This document shows, piece after piece, positions 26,246 through 42,055 of a DNA stretch of 44,932 bases (positions are counted from its first letter, which is position 1; each line of letters starts with the position of its first letter). The stretch comes from Citrobacter phage phiNP, in sequence record OR565852; one strand, 5' to 3'. The notes under the pieces are model-generated. The model worked only from the letters and a program-made list of their open reading frames with translations, did no database searches and was not told the origin of the DNA. The position numbers and the translations under genes are program-made.

Positions 26246-27298
26246 TTATTTTTCTGGTAACGCTCTGATTTCTTCAACGGTCTGGTTAAACCGCTCTGTT
26301 TCCAGCTCGACGCCAATAGCCTTACGGCCTAAATCGATCGCCGCTTTTAACGTGGAACCGGAGCCCATGAAGAAATCAGCTACCACATCCCCGGGTCTGC
26401 TGCTCGCGCTGATGATTTGCTTCAGCATGTCAGCAGGCTTTTCGCAGGGATGTTTGCCGGGATAAAACTGGACGGGTTTATGCGTCCATACGTCGGTATA
26501 TGGCACGGCCACCGACACGGCAAAATACCGCCGAAGGGATTTGTACTCCTCCAGCAGTTCGGAATATTTACGGTTCAGTGACTGGTATGTTGCCACCAGT
26601 TGGTGATGAGGCTGCGCCAGTTCGGCACGCTGATGCTTCTCGATAGCGATCCGGGTGAAAAGCTCCTGCAATTTGAGGTAATCCGCTTCACCCGGCAGCT
26701 GCCACTGGCTGGAACCAAACCAGTGCGAAACCATGTTCTTCTTACCAGTGGCCTCGGTGATTTGTTTCGAGGTAACGCCAAGGGATTCCCGGGCATTCTG
26801 AAAATAGGTAATAAGCGGTGTCAGCACATGCTGTTTGAGTTCACCACATTTTGCCGCGTAACCATCGTCTTTGGGCTTGCATGGCCCCTGATAGTGTTCA
26901 GCAAACAGAACACGCTCAGTGGCCGGGAAATACGCGCGCAGACTTTCTTTATTGCAGCCATTCCAGCGACCGCTCGGTTTAGCCCAAATGATGTGGTTCA
27001 GGATGCTGAAGCGGTCGCGCATTAAGATTTCAATATCTGCAGCCAGCCGGTGGCCGCAAAACAGGTAAAGGCTACCGGCGGGTTTCAACACTCGCCAGAA
27101 TTCAGCCAGGCAGCGATCGAGCCAGCGAAGATAGTCTTCATCCCCTTTCCACTGGTTATCCCATCCGTTTGGCTTCACCTTGAAGTAAGGCGGATCGGTA
27201 ACAATCAGGTCGATGGAGTTATCAGGAAGGGTGGCGATGTAATGCAGGCAGTCAGCGTTGATTAACTCAACACTGTTTATTTTTACAGTATTTTTCAT
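26246..27298 (-). CDS. DNA methyltransferase (N4/N6 class, DPPY motif)
   Basis: 350 aa; IDLIVTDPPYF motif IV near the N-terminus and FFMGSGST AdoMet motif near the C-terminus. Confidence 0.75.
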   Translation of the reverse strand: MKNTVKINSVELINADCLHYIATLPDNSIDLIVTDPPYFKVKPNGWDNQWKGDEDYLRWLDRCLAEFWRVLKPAGSLYLFCGHRLAADIEILMRDRFSILNHIIWAKPSGRWNGCNKESLRAYFPATERVLFAEHYQGPCKPKDDGYAAKCGELKQHVLTPLITYFQNARESLGVTSKQITEATGKKNMVSHWFGSSQWQLPGEADYLKLQELFTRIAIEKHQRAELAQPHHQLVATYQSLNRKYSELLEEYKSLRRYFAVSVAVPYTDVWTHKPVQFYPGKHPCEKPADMLKQIISASSRPGDVVADFFMGSGSTLKAAIDLGRKAIGVELETERFNQTVEEIRALPEK

Positions 27299-27837: not shown

Positions 27838-28533
27838 TCACATTTCCAGCGCATTAGCCACTTCCAGCCCTTCGCGCCTGATGAGGATCGTTTGCAGCGC
27901 CTGAGTGTCAAGCTCGACGAATGCCGCTTTAAATCTCGCCCAGTGCGATGCATACACACGTAACCAGGTTGAACGATCCACAGACATCATTCGCGCCAGC
28001 GCCGCACCGGCGTATTCTTTATATGTGTCATTGCTTCTGGCCGCAGCCACCTCCTGCGCTGCCAGCCAGACAAGACCGACCAGTTTTTTCACTACCCGTG
28101 ATTGCAGCTTCTTCTCTACCCTGCAATTCTGAAACTCATTCCATACATGCTGGCACATCAGCGTCTGGTACCTGAAGTTCAGATCGAAACCGTAGCAGTA
28201 ACGGATCCATGCCTGCTGGTAGTCATCCAGTGAATTGATTACCCGGCGCCACGGCGCGTAACTAAATTCCAGATCCTGCATTGGCGGGAACGGTCGCCGC
28301 CGGCTTCTCGTTTCCAGCACATAAACAGGCGTGGTTAATGCCTTCACAAGCGAGTGTCCACAGCCTTCCCCGCCCTCCAGTTCGATAAGAGGCTGCCCGC
28401 AGCGGGGCGTTTTATTTTTGTCTGCCGGTGGATGTTCGCTAAACGCCTGCAGTTGCCCCTTTGTCCCTTCAGATAAATTCGCCAGGGCGCGCTTTACTTC
28501 TATACGGGTATATTCAATGGCCTGTAAGTTCAT
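27838..28533 (-). CDS. Putative Q-like late-gene antiterminator
   Basis: 231 aa immediately upstream of the promoter/terminator region and lysis genes; Cys/His cluster (CGQPLIELEGGEGCGH). Confidence 0.5.
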   Translation of the reverse strand: MNLQAIEYTRIEVKRALANLSEGTKGQLQAFSEHPPADKNKTPRCGQPLIELEGGEGCGHSLVKALTTPVYVLETRSRRRPFPPMQDLEFSYAPWRRVINSLDDYQQAWIRYCYGFDLNFRYQTLMCQHVWNEFQNCRVEKKLQSRVVKKLVGLVWLAAQEVAAARSNDTYKEYAGAALARMMSVDRSTWLRVYASHWARFKAAFVELDTQALQTILIRREGLEVANALEM

Positions 28534-28554: not shown

Positions 28555-29646
28555 TTACGCTTTAACAATTACGCCGATCGCCAGCGCCCGATCCAGAAAA
28601 CGAAACAGCAGTTCCAGCTGTGTGCCATATTTCTGCTCGAACGCCGCTACATCGGCATGCAATTTGTCGTGGCACTCTCTGCACAGAGGGAACACGAACA
28701 GGTCATGGGCTTTGGTAGCAGTGCCACCCATCCCATGACCGATAACATGATGCGGATCGTCTGCCGGACGGCGACAACACTCGCAGGGCTGACTTTTAAC
28801 CCAGCGCGTATACTTCTCATTCTCCCAGCGGCGGCGCTTAGGCCGTAACATGAACGACTCCGGTGATTCAGGATCTGCGCTCAATGCAATAACCCTTGGC
28901 TGCTGCTCCTGCATTACCTGCTGATTTTCCTGTGGCCTGCACCTTTTTAACGATCCAGCCGTTTTTATCCTCCTCTGCAGGGCGACGGTTGGTCGGTTAT
29001 CTGCGGCAATAATGTCGCTTTCTTTATATACAGATGGGAACGGTTCATAGGGCATCTGCATCACTCTGGCTGCCAGTTCTTCCGGAATGGCATCTGCCAC
29101 ACCGACATAAATAGCCCACCAGCACAGCTCAGCGATCGACAATTCCCGCTCGCGATTAAACCGAAGGCCGACCAGCACGGTATCAATGATCCAGTCAATA
29201 ACGTTACGGCGCGCTATACCAGCCAACAGATCGGTTGACTGCTCACGAAGTTTGTTATCGCAGTGCCAGCAAAGCATCATCGCGCCCGGGGCGTGTCGCA
29301 TGGTCACCAGCTCATGATGGTGATAATCCGAGTGCGGGTACTGACATTCACCGATATTCCGCTCAAGCCAGTGATCCAGCCCGGAGAGACTACCCGCAGC
29401 ACGGATCACCCTCTCATCAGTGAAGAATGGGATCAGCGCTTCATCCTCCGCCAGCGGCTGCCGGGCATCAGGAACACGGCCGGTTGACAGCCTGGCCATG
29501 TTCTCCGGTTCGGACTCCACCAGCACGCGCCCCGCGGAGAAAAGGCGCATTAACTCTTTGCCCGGTTTGAGCAGTACCACGCCAAGACGTGGCACAACTT
29601 CAGGGGTTAACAGCGCTCTCATGCAACCTCCCGCTGCTGGTTGCAT
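28555..29646 (-). CDS. DUF968-like protein with C-terminal HNH/Zn-finger-like motif
   Basis: 363 aa; C-terminal CECCRR..HHVIGHGMGG..LCRECHDKLH. Confidence 0.55.
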   Translation of the reverse strand: MQPAAGGCMRALLTPEVVPRLGVVLLKPGKELMRLFSAGRVLVESEPENMARLSTGRVPDARQPLAEDEALIPFFTDERVIRAAGSLSGLDHWLERNIGECQYPHSDYHHHELVTMRHAPGAMMLCWHCDNKLREQSTDLLAGIARRNVIDWIIDTVLVGLRFNRERELSIAELCWWAIYVGVADAIPEELAARVMQMPYEPFPSVYKESDIIAADNRPTVALQRRIKTAGSLKRCRPQENQQVMQEQQPRVIALSADPESPESFMLRPKRRRWENEKYTRWVKSQPCECCRRPADDPHHVIGHGMGGTATKAHDLFVFPLCRECHDKLHADVAAFEQKYGTQLELLFRFLDRALAIGVIVKA

Positions 29647-31379
29647 AACTCGGGCAGGTTGGCTTCTACCAGCGCACGGGCAAACGGGGGCGGAACGGCG
29701 TTACCGCAGCGCGCTACCTGCTTGTCTTTTGCATAGCGCTGGCCGCGATAATCACGATCGATAATGTAACCTTCAGGAAAGCCCTGGGCCTTATACAACT
29801 CATGAGGCTGCAACATGCGCATGCCAATATCGACGATCTGGTAGTCGGCACCATCAACCGTTACCAGGCCGAAGCGATCATTGGTTGTGACGGTTCCCAG
29901 CGGTTCATCCAGCGATACGCCGCTTTTTTCATTTCCGTAGTACTTCATCAGGAAGGCGCGAACCTCTCCGATATGCAGACCGCCGGCGGTCACCGTAGGC
30001 ATGGGCTGATCCACTTTTCGACCGTCTTTGCAGGTACCGCGCAGATGAACCAGGTGTGAGGTCACAACAGCATGGTGATCAGTGGTCGTAACGGTATGCG
30101 CAGGTGCATCCATAGCGGCACCCGGCCCCGTATAATTACCGCCGAAGTGTTTCGCCAGAAAGGTGGTCACCAGCTGCGACTTTCCACCACCGCCAGCGGT
30201 TACTGTTCCATTGGGTTCATCAGCGCCGTGTCCGGTACTGTTACCAAACTGGCGGGCTATCATTGGCGCCACCAGGCAGGCGCGGGACTCTTTTAACACG
30301 GTGTGGGCCGGTTTATTTATCGCCCGCGGCTTCGCCTGATATTCGCTACCACCATTACCGGCGATAAACGGGGTAACGACAGCGTATCCATGGGTTTTGG
30401 TAATAGTCTGCAGCGGACTATCAATGCCCTGCCCACGAAAGCAGTCATATGCCGTGCGGCTGCTGGTGTGATTACACTTCACAATAAACGGTGTCGGGTT
30501 GTTCAGCACAAACCGCTCAATACCACGCGCAATGCGCTTCAGCGTATTTTCCGCCAGCAGCTTTGGGCGCTCAAAAATGCTCTGGCAGGGGATTGACCAG
30601 TCGATACACTCCGCCGCGGTACGCCATGGCGCCAGCCTGCCGCTCTGAACTTCCAGCGATTTAGGATCGCCATGTGTTGGCTCTGGCCAGTGAATTTCCT
30701 CACCATCACAGCGCATGACCATGAAGAATCGCTTGCGGATCGTCGGCGCGCCGAAATCGCAGGCTCGCAGTTCGCGATAATCGATGCCGTAGCCCAGCCC
30801 GTTAATAAGGCGCTGCGCCTGCTCGCTGCCTTTAGGTACAGACAGGAACTCGCACACCTCAGACAGGGCGGGATGATCCGCAGGTATGCCGGTGGATAGC
30901 ATGCCAACAAACGCCGCGAAGGTTTCGCCCGCGCGGGATGGATCCGGGCGCATTTCGTCTGCCAGCAGCGGCCCCCACGTTTTGAACTCCTCCACGTTCT
31001 CCAGCATCATGACACGCGGGCGCTTCGCCAGCGCCCAGCGTACTACTACCCACGCCAGACCGCGAATCTCTTTTTTTACCGGCTTAGCACCCTTCGCCTT
31101 TGAGAAGTGGCGGCAATCAGGGCTAAACCAGGCCAGGCCGACCGGATTACCACCAGTGGCCGCCAGCGGATCAACGTCAAACACGGACTCGCAGTAATGC
31201 AGGGTATCGGGGTGGTTAGTTTTGTGCATAGCGATCGCGTTTTCATCGTGGTTGATGGCAATATCCACGCTGCGCCCGATCGCCAGCTCGATCCCGGTAC
31301 TCGCGCCGCCGCCACCAGCAAAGTTATCAACGATAATTTCACGCATTGACGGCTCCCTGCATGCTGTAGACCAGACCAC
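29619..31379 (-). CDS. DNA cytosine-5 methyltransferase with long, internally repetitive variable region
   Basis: 586 aa; motif I DNFAGGGG, motif IV SPDC, motif VI ENV, C-terminal GNAV; ~280-aa variable region with six P..T(V/I)T..(V/L)VT repeats. Confidence 0.8.
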   Translation of the reverse strand: MVWSTACREPSMREIIVDNFAGGGGASTGIELAIGRSVDIAINHDENAIAMHKTNHPDTLHYCESVFDVDPLAATGGNPVGLAWFSPDCRHFSKAKGAKPVKKEIRGLAWVVVRWALAKRPRVMMLENVEEFKTWGPLLADEMRPDPSRAGETFAAFVGMLSTGIPADHPALSEVCEFLSVPKGSEQAQRLINGLGYGIDYRELRACDFGAPTIRKRFFMVMRCDGEEIHWPEPTHGDPKSLEVQSGRLAPWRTAAECIDWSIPCQSIFERPKLLAENTLKRIARGIERFVLNNPTPFIVKCNHTSSRTAYDCFRGQGIDSPLQTITKTHGYAVVTPFIAGNGGSEYQAKPRAINKPAHTVLKESRACLVAPMIARQFGNSTGHGADEPNGTVTAGGGGKSQLVTTFLAKHFGGNYTGPGAAMDAPAHTVTTTDHHAVVTSHLVHLRGTCKDGRKVDQPMPTVTAGGLHIGEVRAFLMKYYGNEKSGVSLDEPLGTVTTNDRFGLVTVDGADYQIVDIGMRMLQPHELYKAQGFPEGYIIDRDYRGQRYAKDKQVARCGNAVPPPFARALVEANLPELCNQQREVA

Positions 31380-32220
31380 CAGCCACGGTGATTATTTCGC
31401 TGGTGGGCATACGCTCAAGCCAGAGCTGATTGATGTTCGCCTTCAGCTTGTTCTGCTGGGCCAACTCCAGAGAATCCGCTCCCTCAACCTGATTGAATAC
31501 CAGGCCAACCTCCAGCGGCCAGATACGCGACTCCACTTCTGGCTGTCCCAAGCCAGCAGGCATAACGTCTTCCACCGGGGCTGGCGGCACCACTTTTTCC
31601 GCGGCAAATTGGGCCAGCGACATAAATGCCCGCCCCTTAGCCTCTAGATCACTGCGATGAATGTAGCTGAAACGCTCGCCCCGCCATGTCTTATCGAATA
31701 CCACTATGGCGCCAGCGAAAAATGCGCTGGTAGGCTGCTGTTTCTCGTCTGCCGGGATAAACCATGCAGGCAGGTCGAAGCCAATGCGGCCACGGATGAA
31801 AACAATATGATCAGCATCTTCAGGCCACCATGTTTCACTAGGTGCCGCTTTGATGAGGAACACATAGCGACCGCCCTTCTCACGCATGGCAGAGGCATAG
31901 CTCATGATATGACTCATGCCGGTGATCGCCTGCTTACCGTCGTATTGCGATCGGCTATAGGGCGGATTGCCGAACGCGGCGCCACCGATGGCGATCAGCA
32001 TTTCCGACCAATCCTGTGTCAGAGCGTTATCTTCGGCGGTGTACCAGACCGGGCATTTGGCGTTACTGTCGTCGGCGAACAAATCCAGCATCAGCGGCCC
32101 AAACATCGCATTGATGCCCCAGAACAACAGTTCCGGCGTGCGCCACTGATCGCCAACTTCTTTTAACTCGTGGACTGGCTTGCTACGTAGTTCAGCCAGC
32201 GCCAGGCAGTATTTATTCAT
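31339..32220 (-). CDS. Phage-type N6-adenine DNA methyltransferase (NPPY) with C-terminal extension
   Basis: 293 aa; WRTPELLF and FGNPPYS motifs of the phage Dam family; ~120-aa C-terminal extension of unknown function. Confidence 0.65.
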   Translation of the reverse strand: MNKYCLALAELRSKPVHELKEVGDQWRTPELLFWGINAMFGPLMLDLFADDSNAKCPVWYTAEDNALTQDWSEMLIAIGGAAFGNPPYSRSQYDGKQAITGMSHIMSYASAMREKGGRYVFLIKAAPSETWWPEDADHIVFIRGRIGFDLPAWFIPADEKQQPTSAFFAGAIVVFDKTWRGERFSYIHRSDLEAKGRAFMSLAQFAAEKVVPPAPVEDVMPAGLGQPEVESRIWPLEVGLVFNQVEGADSLELAQQNKLKANINQLWLERMPTSEIITVAGGLVYSMQGAVNA

Positions 32221-34001: not shown

Positions 34002-34149
34002 CCACAGCCCACTCGGTAAAGCTGTGGTTCACGAGTGCCCAGCCGCCGGGTACTCTTACGGCATAGCAATACGTGACATCGCCTTTGCCACCACGAACTG
34101 GCAGCGCGCGAAGTTGCGAACGCTGGCTATTTGCGGTTAAATTGCTCAT
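33952..34149 (-). CDS. Hypothetical small protein
   Basis: 66 aa; ATG overlaps the TGA of the upstream CII-like gene (ATGA coupling). Confidence 0.3.
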
Positions 34150-34703
34150 GCGGATTTCTCCATACACATAGATTTATCTGCCACGACGCCCGGAGCTGCA
34201 CACTCGCGGGCGTCACTCTTTTCTGGCTGGCAGAAAACGCGGAAAAGCAGCGTTAAATGCTCCTGCCACTTAGCCATGACCTGATAGCTGTTCTCCTCTA
34301 TCTGCGCCCTTTCGGCATCGTCAATCACGCCGTCTGCTGTCGCCTTTCGCACATACTGAGAATGACGCCCGATCCATTCGACCGACTCCATCAGACGTTG
34401 ATTGATGTCGGCGTTATCAACTTCTTCCACGTCCGCCAGCGGCACGAATACGCCGTTTGAATGGCGCGCTATGGCATCGGCGATGTGGTTTGAGCCACCA
34501 GCGCTCTGCAGCACCATTGCCCAGCCCAGCGGGAAAACCTGGTCGCCGTCGGCACGCAGGCGGTTAAAGAGCGAATTTTCCGTAACATCAAGCCATTCAG
34601 CCGCCTCGGCGTATCCGCCAGGCAGTTCAGCGATCGTTTTTTTAATTGCTGCCACCAGCCAGGCTGGCTGACGTTCAACTTTCCACTGCGGTTCGTTACC
34701 CAC
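34146..34703 (-). CDS. Putative CII-like early regulatory protein
   Basis: 185 aa directly downstream of cro; assignment by position and weak recollection only. Confidence 0.35.
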
Positions 34704-34959
34704 GGCTATCCCCTTTTTTCTGTGGTGCAGCTTTAACGCTCTTCCCTGTAGGGTTTACATAACGCTGCGGGTACAAAATCTGGAGTTCGTCTATCTGGCC
34801 CGAATAAAACTTCACCAGCCTTTCAGCTACATCGAGAGAAGCAATTTGCTGTCCCCGTTCAATTCGGCTTAAGTTGGCAGGATCAATGCCCACCAAGTTG
34901 GCGACATATGAGAGTGTTAAATTTTGCGATTTTCGCAAATTTCTTAGCGGTGATTGCAT
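34696..34959 (-). CDS. cro: Cro-like HTH (XRE family) repressor
   Basis: 87 aa; HTH LTLSYVANLVGIDPANLSRIERG; divergent from cI. Confidence 0.7.
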   Translation of the reverse strand: MQSPLRNLRKSQNLTLSYVANLVGIDPANLSRIERGQQIASLDVAERLVKFYSGQIDELQILYPQRYVNPTGKSVKAAPQKKGDSRG

Positions 34960-35057
34960 AAAGCCCCCTATAATTGCGCAATACGCATATTAATGTGTAC
35001 TTACGACTTGCGCAAGTTGCTTTGCATATCACGCAAAAACAACCTGTAATAGAACGC
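34960..35057. promoter_or_regulatory. Immunity-region operators/promoters (OR-like)
   Basis: Divergent cro/cI intergenic region with TTGCGCAATACGCA, CTTGCGCAAG and ACGCAA elements. Confidence 0.5.
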
Positions 35058-35753
35058 ATGAACATAGGAAACCGCATTAGAGAATTGCGCCTCGCAAGAG
35101 GCATGAAAATTTCTGACCTTGCTGATGCTGTTGGTATTGACGGCGCGAACGTTTCTCGCGTAGAGACCGGTAAGCAAAAGTCATTTACTGAACAATCGCT
35201 TAGCAAATATGCAAATGCGCTCGGCGTTGATGTTGCTGAACTCTTTACACCTTCCATAAATGAAACTACTGTATACAAATCCAGTGAGAATAATCCAGTT
35301 TATGGAGAGGATGACCCGGTGTTTAGAGTCGAAATGCTTGATGTCAGTGCCAGCGCTGGCATGGGTTTTATACAGGGTAGTGATGTCATCGATGTCATCA
35401 GATCGATTGAATACAACAGCGAACGGGCGGTCGCTCTGTTTGGTGGAAGAACGCCAGATACCGTTAAAGTGATCAACGTTCGCGGTGATAGTATGGCTGA
35501 TACTATAGAGCCAGGTGACCTAATCTTTGTTGATGTTTCAATTAATGAATTTGATGGTGATGGCATTTATGTGTTTGGTTTTGACGAGAAAATTTATGTC
35601 AAACGGTTACAGATGATTCCCGATAAAATTCTGGTGATATCTGATAATCCCAAATACAGAGAGTGGTCAGTTGATCAATCTAACGAAGACCGTTTTTATG
35701 TGTTTGGGAAAGTGATGCTTAGCCAATCACAAGCAATGAAAAGACACGGATAA
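35058..35753 (+). CDS. cI: CI-like repressor (HTH_XRE + S24 LexA-like peptidase domain)
   Basis: N-terminal HTH; C-terminal S24 motifs VRGDSMADTIEPGDLIFVD and KIYVKRL; likely start at ATG 35058 within track ORF 34974-35753. Confidence 0.85.
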   Translation: MNIGNRIRELRLARGMKISDLADAVGIDGANVSRVETGKQKSFTEQSLSKYANALGVDVAELFTPSINETTVYKSSENNPVYGEDDPVFRVEMLDVSASAGMGFIQGSDVIDVIRSIEYNSERAVALFGGRTPDTVKVINVRGDSMADTIEPGDLIFVDVSINEFDGDGIYVFGFDEKIYVKRLQMIPDKILVISDNPKYREWSVDQSNEDRFYVFGKVMLSQSQAMKRHG

Positions 35754-35768
35754 CCCCTCTCCAGCAAA

Positions 35769-35795
35769 GAGCCGCCGCTTAATGGCGGCTTTTTC
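35769..35795 (+). terminator. Rho-independent terminator after cI
   Basis: GCCGCC-gcttaat-GGCGGC stem followed by TTTTT. Confidence 0.6.
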
Positions 35796-35803
35796 ATACC
35801 CTA

Positions 35804-35859
35804 AATATTGCGAATTACGCATTTTATTACTTGCGTAATTCGCAATATTATTTTATCTT
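35804..35859 (+). promoter_or_regulatory. OL/pL-like double operator palindrome with putative promoter
   Basis: AATATTGCGAATTACGCA-9 nt-TGCGTAATTCGCAATATT; each arm is itself a 13-bp dyad; possible -35 TTGCGT and -10 TATCTT. Confidence 0.5.
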
Positions 35860-36745
35860 CATTCCATCAACAGCGAACAGGCAGGACGCCCACGAAGTAG
35901 CCGCCCGGGGCATATGAAGGCCGGGATGATTCGCTCAGAACATGGCGAAAGCCGAAAGACTTGAAGGCGGTTTTCTCAGGTTGCGCGCTAAAGCATAGCG
36001 GGGAGAACCTGGGGCGGAGAGCAAACCCCGCGATTCAGGACATGATCGCCTGTGCATACCAATAAGCCGTCTGGCAGCGTAACTGCTCTTTACATTGGCA
36101 CCGGCAAAGTGGCGCCGCTGAACCGAGGCTGGTGGATCGTAAAACCGCAGGAGCAAGCAACAAACGGTAGTCCGTATGGAGAAAAATCCGTTGAGTAAGG
36201 GGCCTGGCCGGAACCGTAACCGGCACACAACGATGAGAGCATTGACGAGCAAGGTTTAATGTCCGGTTCGATTCCAGACACCACGAAGCGGTGGCAATGG
36301 GCAGGGAAAAGGTCCGTTCAATTCGGACACCGGCAGTGCTCTCTTCGTTGTGGAGTATACAAGCGTATTGCAGCGCCGGTCGACGCAAAGACCCGTAAAT
36401 CGACTGAGCCGTAGTTACTGGCGGCCAATACCAAAACAGAGCGGCGGGAAGTAAGTAGGGGTAGCGCCCTGGTGTCACAACCAAATCACGCTTAGGACCG
36501 TGATAACCGTAGTACCAATATTGCTGTGTGTAGTCTTGGCGGTACCAGTTCCATCCCTTGAAGTCCCTGGTACCGCCCTTTTTACACAAGAGACAAGAGC
36601 ATCACCGGGCGACGGGCTCATAACCCAATCCACCCGGGCGTTAAGGAAGTGGTCTTCTCACCCATGACCAGCGCGCAGGTGCTCTTTTCTGTTGTGTATG
36701 GAGAAACTTACGGCGGCGGCAGCCGCTTAACCGAGAGGAAATGCT

Positions 36746-37117
36746 ATGAGCAATGATCGCATGACCGTAGTACCCGATTTTCTGGGTGAGCTGGACGCCG
36801 GCGTGTTCATGAACAAAATCGCCGCCGCGCTTAATACCACCGCGCTGGGTGTTCTAAATAACGGCACCAAAGGCAAAGTTGTTCTCACCTTTGATTTTGA
36901 GCGTATGGGGAATTCCGTTGAAGAGAAGCGCGTCAAGATCAAGCACAAGCTGAATTACAGCACCCCGACGCCGCGCGGTAAAGCCTCCGAAGAGGACACC
37001 ACTGAAACGCCAATGTGGGTTAACAAAGGCGGCAAGCTCACCATCCTGCAGGAGGATCAGGGGCAATTGTTCAGTATCAACGGCGCCACAGACGGAAAGC
37101 TTAAAGCGGCTCAGTGA
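36746..37117 (+). CDS. YfdP-like prophage protein (hypothetical)
   Basis: 123 aa; SD GAGGAA upstream; first ORF after the long leader. Confidence 0.45.
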   Translation: MSNDRMTVVPDFLGELDAGVFMNKIAAALNTTALGVLNNGTKGKVVLTFDFERMGNSVEEKRVKIKHKLNYSTPTPRGKASEEDTTETPMWVNKGGKLTILQEDQGQLFSINGATDGKLKAAQ

Positions 37118-37155: not shown

Positions 37156-38001
37156 TTGTTAATAAGGAATTTTATGTCTCAGGTAGACAGCGGTACTTTT
37201 AAGCAGGTTAAAGATCTGGTTCTTTCTGGTTATCACCTGAATGATATTAACGGCCTGGCTTGCCCAACAGCATTACTCCCGGAAGAAACTCGCGTTGAAA
37301 GCCTCGAGCGCTTTTCTCTTGAGCGCTTCCGTTTCCGTGGGGCCATGACCACAACCAGCATTGATGATTTTGCCCGTTATTCTAAAGGCTACGCCAGTAC
37401 CGAGGAACCTGCTCGCTGCTTTATTGATGCGGACAATATGACTGCGCGATCCGTGTTCAATATCGGCACGCTGGATAATCCGGGCCATGCTGATAACGTT
37501 GCTGCAATCACCCTGAAGCAGACTGCGCCTTTCCGCGCGCTGCTGGCGATCAACGGCGACCGCCTGAAGCAAAAGCAAATCGCTGAATGGCTGGAAGACT
37601 GGAGTGATTATCTGCTGGCCTTTGATGCTGACGGAAATACCATGCAAATTTCACAGGCTGCTCAGGCTGTTCGACGCATCACTATCCAGCAGGCCACCCA
37701 ACAAGATCATGAAGACGGTGATTTCAGCGGGAAAAAATCGCTGATGCAGAGTGTTGAGGCCAGCAGCAAAGATGTTATGCCTGTAGCGTTTGAGTTCAAA
37801 TGCGTGCCATACGAAGGGCTTGGTGAGCGTGCATTCAGCCTGCGCAATAGTCTGCTCACTGGTGACGAACCGCGTTTTGTACTGCGCATTGTTCAACTGG
37901 AAGCGCAGGAAGAAGCGATCGCCAACGAATTCCGCGACCTGCTGATCGGCAAATTCGACGGCGAGCCAGTGGAAACCTTTATCGGTAACTTTAAAGCGTA
38001 A
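37156..38001 (+). CDS. YfdQ-like (DUF2303) prophage protein
   Basis: 281 aa; resemblance to CPS-53 prophage YfdQ recalled from memory. Confidence 0.5.
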   Translation: MLIRNFMSQVDSGTFKQVKDLVLSGYHLNDINGLACPTALLPEETRVESLERFSLERFRFRGAMTTTSIDDFARYSKGYASTEEPARCFIDADNMTARSVFNIGTLDNPGHADNVAAITLKQTAPFRALLAINGDRLKQKQIAEWLEDWSDYLLAFDADGNTMQISQAAQAVRRITIQQATQQDHEDGDFSGKKSLMQSVEASSKDVMPVAFEFKCVPYEGLGERAFSLRNSLLTGDEPRFVLRIVQLEAQEEAIANEFRDLLIGKFDGEPVETFIGNFKA

Positions 38002-38867: not shown

Positions 38868-39190
38868 ACGAACAAACTACAGTTAAACACCTCCATTTCT
38901 ACGGTGCCAGCGATGATCTGCTGGAATGCGAAGGCGCGATCCGCGAGGAGATTGGTTGCTATAACTCTCCAGGCATCTATCACCTCAAATCCGCCGAGGG
39001 TGAAATGCAGGTTGTCGGTTATTACCTCGACTCCGGGCTGTGGAGCATCGGAATCAGCCAGGTCGCCGAAGATACGCCGCTGCCAGCGTGGCCCGTCACT
39101 TACGCCATGCATGAGCGTGGTTACAGTGTCCAGCTCACCATCACTGTGCCGGACGACGCCATTCTGGTTTTGTCAGAGGAAGATGAATGA
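38864..39190 (+). CDS. Hypothetical protein
   Basis: 108 aa; start overlaps the stop of the upstream ORF. Confidence 0.4.
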   Translation: MNEQTTVKHLHFYGASDDLLECEGAIREEIGCYNSPGIYHLKSAEGEMQVVGYYLDSGLWSIGISQVAEDTPLPAWPVTYAMHERGYSVQLTITVPDDAILVLSEEDE

Positions 39191-39918
39191 GCATTACCCT
39201 GCATAACGCCGACTGCTTCGATGTTTTTCCGACGATTGCCAGCGGTTCCGTAGACATGGTGTGTGCGGATATTCCCTACGGTACCACGCAGTGCTGCTGG
39301 GATTCGGTGCTTGACCTCGAGGTGATGTGGCATGAACTGTACCGCATCGCCAAGCCGTCAGCGGCAATTGTCCTGTTTTCGGCTCAACCGTTTACCGCGG
39401 TGCTGGTCGGCAGCAACCTGGCGGACTGGCGATCCGAGTGGATTTGGGAAAAAGGCAACGCCACCGGCTTCCTTAATGCCAAAAAACAGCCGTTGCGTGC
39501 CCATGAAAATATAGAGGTGTTTTATCGTCGCCAGCCGACATACAACCCGCAGTTTACCCATGGTCATGCGCGCAGAACATCGAAGCGCAAAACCGTCAAT
39601 TCGGAGTGCTACGGCAAAGCGCTGACGCTGACTAAGTATGACTCAACCAGCCGGTACCCGCGCGATGTGCAGTTTTTCTCGAGTGACAAGCAAACCGGTA
39701 ATTTCCATCCCACCCAGAAGCCGCTGGCGCTGGTTCAGTACCTGATCGAGACCTACAGCAACCCCGGCGATACGGTGCTGGATTTCACAATGGGAAGCGG
39801 TACCGCAGGAGTCGCCTGCCTGCGTGTCGGGCGCTGCTTTATTGGCATTGAGAAAGACACCTCAATATTTCAGGTCGCGCGTCATCGTATAGGGACTAAG
39901 CAGGAGCATGCAGCATGA
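39187..39918 (+). CDS. DNA methyltransferase (N4/N6 class)
   Basis: 243 aa; DIPYG motif-IV variant near the N-terminus, FTMGSGT AdoMet-binding motif near the C-terminus. Confidence 0.7.
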   Translation: MSITLHNADCFDVFPTIASGSVDMVCADIPYGTTQCCWDSVLDLEVMWHELYRIAKPSAAIVLFSAQPFTAVLVGSNLADWRSEWIWEKGNATGFLNAKKQPLRAHENIEVFYRRQPTYNPQFTHGHARRTSKRKTVNSECYGKALTLTKYDSTSRYPRDVQFFSSDKQTGNFHPTQKPLALVQYLIETYSNPGDTVLDFTMGSGTAGVACLRVGRCFIGIEKDTSIFQVARHRIGTKQEHAA

Positions 39919-40709: not shown

Positions 40710-40928
40710 ATGGAGAAATTTATGCTGAGCCTCGATTGTGTTCCCATCTCAACTTATTGCAAAGAGACAGGCGAAACTCCTGATGCGATCAACAAGCGCG
40801 TACAGCGCGGTGTGTGGCGTGAAGGGGTTCAGGTGCTGAAAGTCGAAGGCGTTAAGGAGAGATGGATAGATCTTAGTGAGGTTGCAAAATGGGCCAGACA
40901 GAATCGCCTAAACTCCCGCGCGGCGTAA
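40710..40928 (+). CDS. xis: Excisionase-like protein
   Basis: 72 aa immediately upstream of and overlapping the integrase gene. Confidence 0.55.
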   Translation: MEKFMLSLDCVPISTYCKETGETPDAINKRVQRGVWREGVQVLKVEGVKERWIDLSEVAKWARQNRLNSRAA

Positions 40929-42055
40929 CCATCAGGAAACATCGCAACGGTCAAACCATCAATATTACTTTTACATATAAAGGGGTGAAATGCCGTGAGC
41001 CTCTTTCTAATCTGGACGTAACCCCTAAAAATATCAAATACGCCGAGCGCACACTCGGCGAAATCCATAACAAGATCGAAAGGGGAACGTTTGTTTACGC
41101 GGAATACTTTCCCCGTTCTACCCGATTAAAAATTTTCGGAAACGCTGCCGCAGGAAAAACGGTGAAGATGTATCTGGATGAGTATCTGGTGATCTGCGAA
41201 ACGAGGAAGCTTTCCCCTTCGACAATAGGCGGGTACAAGAAATGCCGAAGCGCATTGTCATCACTTCATATTTATCCTGCAAGTGAGTTGACGCCGGCTG
41301 CATTGAAGACATGGATCCAGAACCAGAAAACGACATTGAAGACCATCCGAAACCAGTTGTCATTCCTGCGTTCTGCATTGGATGAAGCAGTGACAGATGG
41401 TGTGCTTCAGATTAACCCTGTATCTCTGGTAACAGCCTCACGATACCAAAGTGATAAATCAGAGGCAGAAAGTAGTTATGTGGTTGATCCGCTATCACCA
41501 GCAGAAGTTGATGCTTTGCTCTCTGCTACTGGCAATAAGCAGTGGGAGAATCTTTTCCGGTTCGCGATACAAACAGGGCTGCGTAGTTCCGAATTGTGTG
41601 CTCTTCGTTGGCGTGATATCGACTTTGTAGGGAAGACTGCCCATATCCAGAGCGCCAGTGTTGTTGGTGTGATCAAAGGGACCAAGACAAAAGCAGGTAC
41701 CCGTAAAGTTGAACTCACAGATGAAGCAATGTCGGCTCTGATAAATCAGAAACCGTTCACGTTCATGAAGGGCGCTACTGTCTTTGAGGATCCAAAGACC
41801 AATAAGCCGTGGGCAAGTGCTGATGCAATTAGAAAAAAGGCATGGGTGCCGACATTGCGAAAGGCTGGTATTCGGTACAGAAACCCATATCAGACTAGAC
41901 ATACATTCGCCACATGCCATATCAGCCGGGGAACAAACTTGTTCTGGCTTGCGACTCAAATGGGACATAAAGGCCCAGAGATGCTTTTCCGTCACTACGG
42001 CTCATATCTGAAGGAATATGATGGACAAACAAGCCTGAAGAAGATAAAAATATAA
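40889..42055 (+). CDS. int: Tyrosine integrase
   Basis: 388 aa; N-terminal arm-binding-type segment (LPRGVTIRKHRNGQ) and C-terminal catalytic region (RHTFATCHI...HYGSY). Confidence 0.85.
   Translation: MGQTESPKLPRGVTIRKHRNGQTINITFTYKGVKCREPLSNLDVTPKNIKYAERTLGEIHNKIERGTFVYAEYFPRSTRLKIFGNAAAGKTVKMYLDEYLVICETRKLSPSTIGGYKKCRSALSSLHIYPASELTPAALKTWIQNQKTTLKTIRNQLSFLRSALDEAVTDGVLQINPVSLVTASRYQSDKSEAESSYVVDPLSPAEVDALLSATGNKQWENLFRFAIQTGLRSSELCALRWRDIDFVGKTAHIQSASVVGVIKGTKTKAGTRKVELTDEAMSALINQKPFTFMKGATVFEDPKTNKPWASADAIRKKAWVPTLRKAGIRYRNPYQTRHTFATCHISRGTNLFWLATQMGHKGPEMLFRHYGSYLKEYDGQTSLKKIKI

Follow-up and report, generated by a model that had tools for sequence, protein, structure and literature searches.

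The DNA analysed here (the window) is a stretch of 44,932 nucleotides from Citrobacter phage phiNP (record OR565852), and the region in question is the leader that lies between the repressor gene and the first early-left gene of an SfV/ST64B-like lambdoid prophage (35860-36745). The cI-type repressor gene (S24/helix-turn-helix, 34974-35753, plus strand) is followed on the same strand by its intrinsic terminator, an inverted repeat plus T run (AAAGAGCCGCC / GGCGGCTTTTT, 35766-35795), and by an operator palindrome with 18-nt arms that are 100% complementary (35804-35849). This palindrome overlaps the early-left promoter pL, whose hexamers TTGCGT (-35, 35831-35836) and TATCTT (-10, 35854-35859), separated by a 17-nt spacer and read on the plus strand, align under the TTGACA and -10 boxes of about 10 other immunity types in the flanked alignment. 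Transcription is predicted to start near 35866. The first early-left gene (36733-37117, plus strand, phrog_204) has a Shine-Dalgarno sequence GAGAGGA at 36733-36739 and encodes a YfdP-like protein of 123 amino acids from a start codon at 36746. The leader between the two genes is the untranslated 5' part of the early-left (pL) transcript and is a mosaic of separable structured-RNA modules. At its head stands a 64-nt RNA, hereafter module A, which is a new and very widespread RNA family, absent from Rfam and unannotated in RefSeq.

A preliminary description made from the sequence alone had correctly recognised this context (cI-type repressor with terminator, operator, no N-like open reading frame) and had also remarked that the plus strand of the leader contains no open reading frame of 60 or more amino acids; the longest have 55, 51 and 48, and the first real gene is the one starting at 36746. 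The two hairpins that it cited, GTCCG-TTCAATT-CGGAC (36312-36328) and CCAC-GAAGC-GGTGG (36281-36294), are present, and their pairing is kept by compensatory changes in relatives. The folding energy of the whole leader beats that of shuffled sequences only modestly (z = -1.75 for the plus strand, -0.46 for the minus strand), and the real support for RNA structure is covariation, not hairpin counting. The comparison set comprised 80 IMG/VR loci encoding the same YfdP-like protein, together with GenBank phages and E. coli genomes, and the control for covariation was the same alignment with pairing partners shifted. Compensatory changes in the leaders of relatives were found beyond these controls for three modules (A, B1 and B2), and the G-U pairs in the covarying modules agree with the plus strand being the RNA. 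Segments of the leader match different phages at differing spacings and were not inherited as one piece. The large structured RNA that had been suggested is therefore structured, non-coding and read from the plus strand, and it is not one single RNA, its modules being exchanged independently. When known RNA families were searched with the Rfam 15 covariance models, no family reached the gathering threshold in the whole window; the leader gave only sub-threshold matches, to RprA and DicF, and nothing convincing appeared at E up to 10. ARAGORN found no tRNA in the window and none in 36 related leaders.

Module A (35872-35935, plus strand) is a three-helix-junction RNA defined by covariation and by a covariance model, R1, which finds a single copy in the window, at 93.9 bits. 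Its helices are P1 (35872-35877 with 35930-35935), P2 (35880-35882 with 35888-35890) and P3 (35904-35908 with 35921-35925). Across 118 distinct sequences, 95.5% of the cells of the three-helix model are paired, against 20-43% with shifted partners, and 10 of the 14 pairs show compensatory changes, which involve 330 cells. At least four versions of P1 exist that differ completely (AGCGAA/UUCGCU, CCACC/GGUGG, GUCAUC/GAUGAC and AGGAAC/GUUCCU), and about a dozen of P3. The bases of the junction are invariant (GGCAGGAYGCCCACGAAGUAGC, which includes GAAGUAGC, then GAA and AUGA), with about 30 invariant bases in total. In particular, the UAGC that follows CACGAAG is unchanged in 178 distinct sequences that were gathered without imposing UAGC. 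A candidate pseudoknot between GUAGC of J2/3 and the P3 loop is pairable in 97%; its 5' strand is invariant in the 178 sequences, so that no covariation signal is possible. As a separate observation, the 3' half of the cI terminator (35784-35795, GGCGGCTTTTTC) shows 83% complementarity to GAAGTAGCCGCC, an invariant stretch of module A (35894-35905), so that module A could be mis-folded when transcription reads through from cI.

Module A is conserved at 85-97% over about 64 nt right behind pL-type promoters of at least 10 operator/immunity types in the flanked alignment. Conservation starts a few bases past the start site, module A itself beginning about 6 nt past the predicted transcription start, and halts sharply at the 3' strand of P1 (...GAUUCGC), beyond which the sequences of the members are unrelated. 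An upstream promoter match of at least 9/12 within 60 nt was found in 55% of 121 distinct regions and in 2% of controls, the commonest distance from the end of the -10 box to P1 being 12 nt. In other phages R1 again finds one copy per phage, always on the pL side.

Of 5426 complete E. coli genomes 1381 contain module A, and in none of them is it annotated. It follows the repressor gene or operon in SfV, SfII, SfIV, ST64B, Pectobacterium ZF40, Yersinia YeP1, Pantoea AH07, SEN34, SPN3UB, Chris1, PHB10, mEp237, a Klebsiella phage and Aeromonas pAEv1818. In SfV, ZF40, YeP1 and Gifsy-like phages it heads leaders with protein genes in place of RNA cassettes. T5-like Providencia phages have it at the start of a transcript as well: in the lytic phage PSTCR5 (1479-1560) it stands directly after a promoter, with a boxA (CGCTCTTTAAAAA) 8 nt later, and in a phage related to PSTCR5 it lies within the annotated terminal repeat. 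A search of a one-genome-per-species collection with the 22-nt core returned 79 stretches, two of which were chance matches in coding DNA and were removed. Nearly all are from Enterobacterales, from genera including Citrobacter, Enterobacter, Serratia, Yersinia, Xenorhabdus, Photorhabdus, Pantoea, Erwinia and Pectobacterium. The literature searched prints neither the core of module A nor the C1 seed described below; it did not include King et al. 2011 (J Bacteriol, put-like RNAs), which may list module A.

Downstream of module A, the leader continues with module B1 (35938-36145, plus strand), an RNA of about 208 nt with several hairpins, including a GGC-GAAA-GCC tetraloop hairpin. It is supported by covariation (97% of cells paired against 32-45% with shifted partners, 13 of 52 pairs compensatory), in an alignment of only seven sequences from which the structure was itself derived. 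Module B2 (36226-36352, plus strand) is a four-way junction with a closing stem of 20-22 bp (36226-36247 with 36331-36352) and three hairpins: HP1 (36261-36279, loop UUCGAUU), the variable HP2 (36281-36294) and HP3 (36312-36328, loop UUCAAUU). The near-repeat noticed in the preliminary description corresponds to HP1 and HP3, two hairpins of one junction with heptaloops resembling the T-loop of tRNA. The covariation of B2 is clear, with 95.4% of cells paired against 39-57% for shifted partners, compensatory changes in 11 of 36 pairs and a fully covarying HP2. A U-G pair is kept in 17 of 18 sequences, which points to the plus strand as the RNA. On the opposite strand, the 3' half of B2 (36383-36300, minus strand) carries a promoter-like TCGACC-18-TATACT and a terminator-like hairpin (GTCCGAATTGAACGGAC + CTTTTCC); an antisense RNA made from these would be about 45 nt long.

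B2 also occurs in a different setting. In the epsilon15-like Salmonella phage SPC32H a B2 homologue is found between head and terminase genes, downstream of a promoter of its own. It ends exactly where a genuine tRNA-Arg(UCU) begins, directly against the 5' end of that tRNA, and a C1-like small RNA (sRNA) follows. The whole RNA cluster (SPC32H 2300-2810) consists of a further module, D, then B2, tRNA-Arg(UCU) and the C1-like sRNA, and Rfam recognises in it only the true tRNA-Arg. In the window the slot of this tRNA is occupied by the spacer between B2 and C1 (36354-36479, plus strand), in which no tRNA is detectable. Since B2 occurs outside pL leaders, beside a tRNA, it is not a leader-specific regulator; and because the same modules flank tRNA-Arg in SPC32H, B2 and C1 are, as judged by sequence comparison, mobile stable-RNA cassettes. 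The leader also reveals cassettes of stable RNA that move together with a tRNA gene. Large or stable RNAs adjoining tRNA genes are known from phages, among them GOLLD, ROOL and the species 1/2 RNAs of T4. In general architecture B2 resembles these and the bacterial tRNA-like Y RNAs (YrlA) in being ornate, in its size of about 127 nt, in its long 5'/3' stem and T-arm-like hairpins, and in abutting a tRNA in SPC32H. It differs in that no Rfam model, those of the GOLLD, ROOL and Y-RNA-type families included, matches it at E up to 10. Neither B2 nor module C2 (see below) can be taken for a tRNA, as neither is recognised by ARAGORN or by the Rfam tRNA model.

Module C1 (36480-36583, plus strand) resembles sRNAs of the DicF family, on the basis of sub-threshold Rfam matches, an inverted repeat and a terminator folding free energy of -20.1 kcal/mol. 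It is made up of a 5' hairpin (36485-36504), a single-stranded seed ATTGCTGTGTGTAGTCTT (36520-36537) and a strong intrinsic terminator (GGCGGTACCAG...CTGGTACCGCC + CTTTTT, 36538-36583). The 18-nt seed, which is the best-conserved part of C1 across leaders, is identical to a segment of E. coli K-12 rprA and stands directly 5' of the terminator in both. Otherwise C1 is not RprA (RF00034): it scores 23.6 bits where the cut-off is 70, the rest of the molecule is unrelated and the part that pairs with rpoS is absent. The identity of the seeds suggests that C1 may be a phage mimic of RprA targeting, by which the phage would interfere with the RpoS/biofilm regulatory circuit. The likeness to DicF and the dicB operon of Qin lies in the terminator arms (TTGGCGGTAYCAGTT...CCGCCCTTTTT), common to C1 and DicF, and in the organisation of an early-left operon after the repressor, with the order sRNA, terminator, long inverted repeat and next gene. 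C1 differs from DicF (RF00039) in its score (20.5 bits, with a cut-off of 48) and in its seed; Qin, moreover, has no module A, none having been found in its dicB operon.

Module C2 (36584-36698, plus strand), always directly upstream of the yfdP-like gene, was delimited by an inverted repeat and by alignment. Its closing stem of about 20 bp (36584-36603 with 36678-36698) shows many G-U changes and one compensatory pair, and covariation supports this stem only. The interior hardly varies and contains CGGGCTCATAACCC (36613-36626), which equals positions 28-41 of E. coli initiator tRNA (metZ), the anticodon arm; it is nearly invariant in 39 distinct copies of C2 and lies about 120 nt upstream of the start codon of the yfdP-like gene. 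A variable covarying hairpin is also present in C2. For the interior, both an anticodon-arm-like hairpin and the pairing proposed by RNAalifold fit, and covariation favours neither. Hairpins processed by RNase III are known from the lambda N leader, T7 early mRNA and the 3' end of dicF. The 20-22-bp, near-perfect duplexes that close B2 and C2 recall them, C2 being placed just upstream of the ribosome-binding site of the first gene; the difference is that the interiors of B2 and C2 are conserved structured domains, not simple loops.

The conserved non-coding module D (ACGGCGTATGGCACATGCGTCG...GGTAGCCGGAATGTGCAAG) was seen in phage Stx2a_1447 (2835-2935), in SPC32H (2340-2425) and in further loci (L151, 3420-3456; L159-L161; L136). 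It has short words in common with stem I of the HK022-type put RNA (ACGGCG, CAUGCGUCG). Some leaders have it close to their 5' end; in others it follows module A at a distance of about 700 nt. We considered whether D of Stx2a_1447 is a simple put-like replacement for module A and rejected this, as those other loci contain both modules.

What does module A do? HK022 putL is a folded RNA of about 70 nt, the first product of PL, that binds the zinc-binding domain of the beta' subunit and renders RNA polymerase termination-resistant (PMC9378689). Module A could well be a cis-acting antitermination RNA of this kind, put-like in action without put homology; this is the interpretation that we prefer, at a confidence that stops a little short of even. 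It would fold on leaving RNA polymerase and make the complex termination-resistant, alone or with Nus factors. The modified polymerase would then get past the C1 terminator and across the 0.9-kb untranslated stretch into the early-left genes. Without the modification, transcripts would end at about 36583 and give the C1 sRNA. The closing stems of B2 and C2, which from their length and pairing are probable RNase III sites, would set the stable RNAs free and shorten the leader of the mRNA, as happens in the dicF-dicB operon of Qin and the lambda N leader. B1, B2 and C1 would accordingly be accessory stable-RNA cassettes, not cis-regulators of pL.

Three observations speak for this proposal. First, the C1 terminator, at -20.1 kcal/mol, stands between module A and the first gene. 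Second, no N-like protein appears among the window proteins scanned with Pfam, nor among the first downstream open reading frames of 10 phages. Third, an exact rrn-type boxA core ((C/T)GCTCTTTA, or as RNA (C/U)GCUCUUUA), mostly continuing ...ACAATC, is found 8-45 nt past module A in 14 of 204 distinct relatives, where about 0.3 would be expected from a background of 0.0015 per 80 nt. These 14 relatives represent at least six sequence contexts, a T5-like phage included, and some of the boxA sites are preceded by a boxB-like hairpin.

Several points weigh against antitermination or are neutral. It is deduced for module A from position and association only. A boxA is lacking in 93% of the relatives, and in the window none (CGCUCUUA / UGCUCUUUAACAA) is found near module A; the sole plus-strand look-alike in the leader, at 36084, is not conserved in relatives. 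Terminator-like hairpins show no sense excess within 2 kb past module A, being present on the sense strand in 54% and on the antisense strand in 66% of 103 loci. The leader is G-rich, not C-rich, with no obvious Rho target. In contrast to HK022, there is no second, pR-side copy, as judged by R1. Finally, about 19 of the 80 related loci have no module A within 3 kb upstream, and related phages such as Stx2a_1447, which also has B2/C1-type cassettes, possess the same C1-type terminator and early-left genes without it; this element is therefore not the sole way to express those genes.

A less likely reading, although the nearest competitor, makes module A a nut-like recruitment site, inactive on polymerase by itself, for a trans-acting protein that would be a phage factor encoded elsewhere or host Nus or ribosomal proteins; it would be a structured counterpart of boxB. 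The excess of boxA over chance in several lineages speaks for it, as a hairpin plus boxA is the arrangement of rrn and lambda, and the invariant unpaired bases would suit a protein-binding surface. With lambda nut and N and with the boxB-boxA leader of rrn operons, module A has in common that it is a promoter-proximal RNA signal, followed in those 14 relatives by an rrn-consensus boxA. It differs from them in the window, which has no boxA beside it and no N-like protein, and in being far larger and more conserved than the boxB hairpin. Against recruitment stand the lack of boxA in most members and the failure to find, downstream of module A in the window and in the 10 phages, any small protein that is N-like or rich in arginine, and also the retention of the element in lambdoid, Gifsy-like, ZF40 and T5-like phages that have no obvious phage protein in common.

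It is rather improbable, in our opinion, that the leader is chiefly a precursor of trans-acting stable RNAs (B1, B2, C1) with module A as a 5' stabilising, folding or processing element. Such a role would agree with the mobility of B2 and C1, found beside a tRNA under another promoter, with the resemblance of C1 to Hfq-type sRNAs and of the long closing stems to RNase III substrates, and with the leaders that have the same cassettes and no module A. For protection, however, a simple 5' hairpin would suffice, and about 30 bases kept invariant across genera imply a specific partner. Module A also heads the protein-gene leaders of SfV, ZF40, YeP1 and Gifsy-like phages, and the association with boxA points to transcription.

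We doubt still more that module A is a ligand-sensing, riboswitch-like aptamer gating early-left expression via Rho or RNA decay. In its size of 64 nt, its three-way junction and the strong conservation of the nucleotides there it resembles aptamers, but there is no conserved expression platform, the sequence past P1 being unrelated between members, and the leader gives no match to an Rfam riboswitch and is not C-rich.

The preliminary description had named an HK022 put-like element as a possibility. An RNA does lie in the putL/nutL position; it is the segment 35872-35935, which had not been singled out there, the hairpins cited belonging to B2. Homology to put, on the other hand, is not borne out by blastn, covariance model or fold, and module A is very unlikely to be a divergent member of the HK022/HK639 put family. 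The likeness to putL and putR of HK022 and to putL of HK639 is one of place and size (about 65-70 nt, folded, at the extreme 5' end of the RNA made from pL in a lambdoid phage that lacks N, and in HK639 also a single copy on the pL side), and the short words CGAAC..GGC and GGAUGA come in the same order. But when the leader was compared with the HK022 immunity region by blastn, put was not matched, R1 scores at most 12.4 bits in HK022 and HK639, and the put consensus CGAACGGCSCG...CAUGCGUCGG...GGCGGGYUCAGGARGA is not matched. In addition, the CGAAC of module A sits in P1, a helix whose sequence is entirely different in other members, and covariation gives a three-helix junction closed by P1, whereas put consists of two adjacent stem-loops forming a V (PMC9378689). 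The RNA annotated in HK639 as 'putL-like antiterminator RNA' is plainly HK022-like. The HK639 record also annotates an 'M3-like RNA' after cII (37910-37969).

The last alternative, a degraded remnant of immunity-region protein genes, could appeal to the small open reading frames that other phages have between module A and the yfdP-like gene (SfV orf33; a ClpX-type zinc-finger protein) and to the antisense frames of 184 (36035-36589) and 105 amino acids (35935-36252) already noticed in the preliminary description, but it is hardly credible for the leader and is refuted for modules A, B1 and B2, given the compensatory base-pair changes throughout, the indels of 1, 2, 4 and 5 nt, not multiples of three, between homologous segments and the window, and the absence of a conserved reading frame or family match in relatives. 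The antisense frames have no Pfam match, and against PHROG they give only partial matches of 21-30 amino acids that coincide with conserved RNA modules. Two families of 'unknown function', phrog_36251 and phrog_33599, match only short pieces at about 36206-36295 and 36575-36637, over B2 and C2, and were probably built from open reading frames mis-called over conserved non-coding RNA.

Returning to antitermination by module A, we know of one small family, the HK022-type put, in which processive antitermination is achieved by RNA only, and to our knowledge many temperate enterobacterial phages without N have no described device for early antitermination. A wider proposal, which we put forward with more reserve than antitermination as such, is that module A represents a second, structurally unrelated class of nascent-RNA antiterminators, acting alone or via boxA and Nus factors, that would explain early transcription in phages lacking N (SfV, ST64B, Gifsy-like phages, ZF40 and the pre-early regions of T5-like phages), and that the cassettes may be tRNA-mimicking stable RNAs, through the double T-loop of B2 and the copy of the initiator-tRNA anticodon arm in C2, meeting host factors that handle or target tRNA. 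If module A modifies RNA polymerase, it offers a second independent solution for structural study and a tool for terminator-proof expression; if it leaves the polymerase unmodified, what remains is a widespread phage RNA whose structure is clean and testable.

Elsewhere in the window, cro (34696-34959, minus strand) is divergent from the repressor gene, and a CP76-type cII (34146-34703) and the Q antiterminator (27838-28533) are also on the minus strand; the integrase gene lies at 40889-42055. A boxA-like CGCTCTTTAACCG at 34561-34573 (minus strand) falls on the pR transcript, within the cII-like open reading frame, and could be due to chance. With up to two mismatches, the window has six boxA-like matches where 1.55 are expected. 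The prophage also carries four DNA methyltransferase genes (26246-27298, 29619-31379, 31339-32220 and 39187-39918), of which two are of the N6_N4 type, one is a C-5 enzyme fused in a protein of 586 amino acids and one is Dam.

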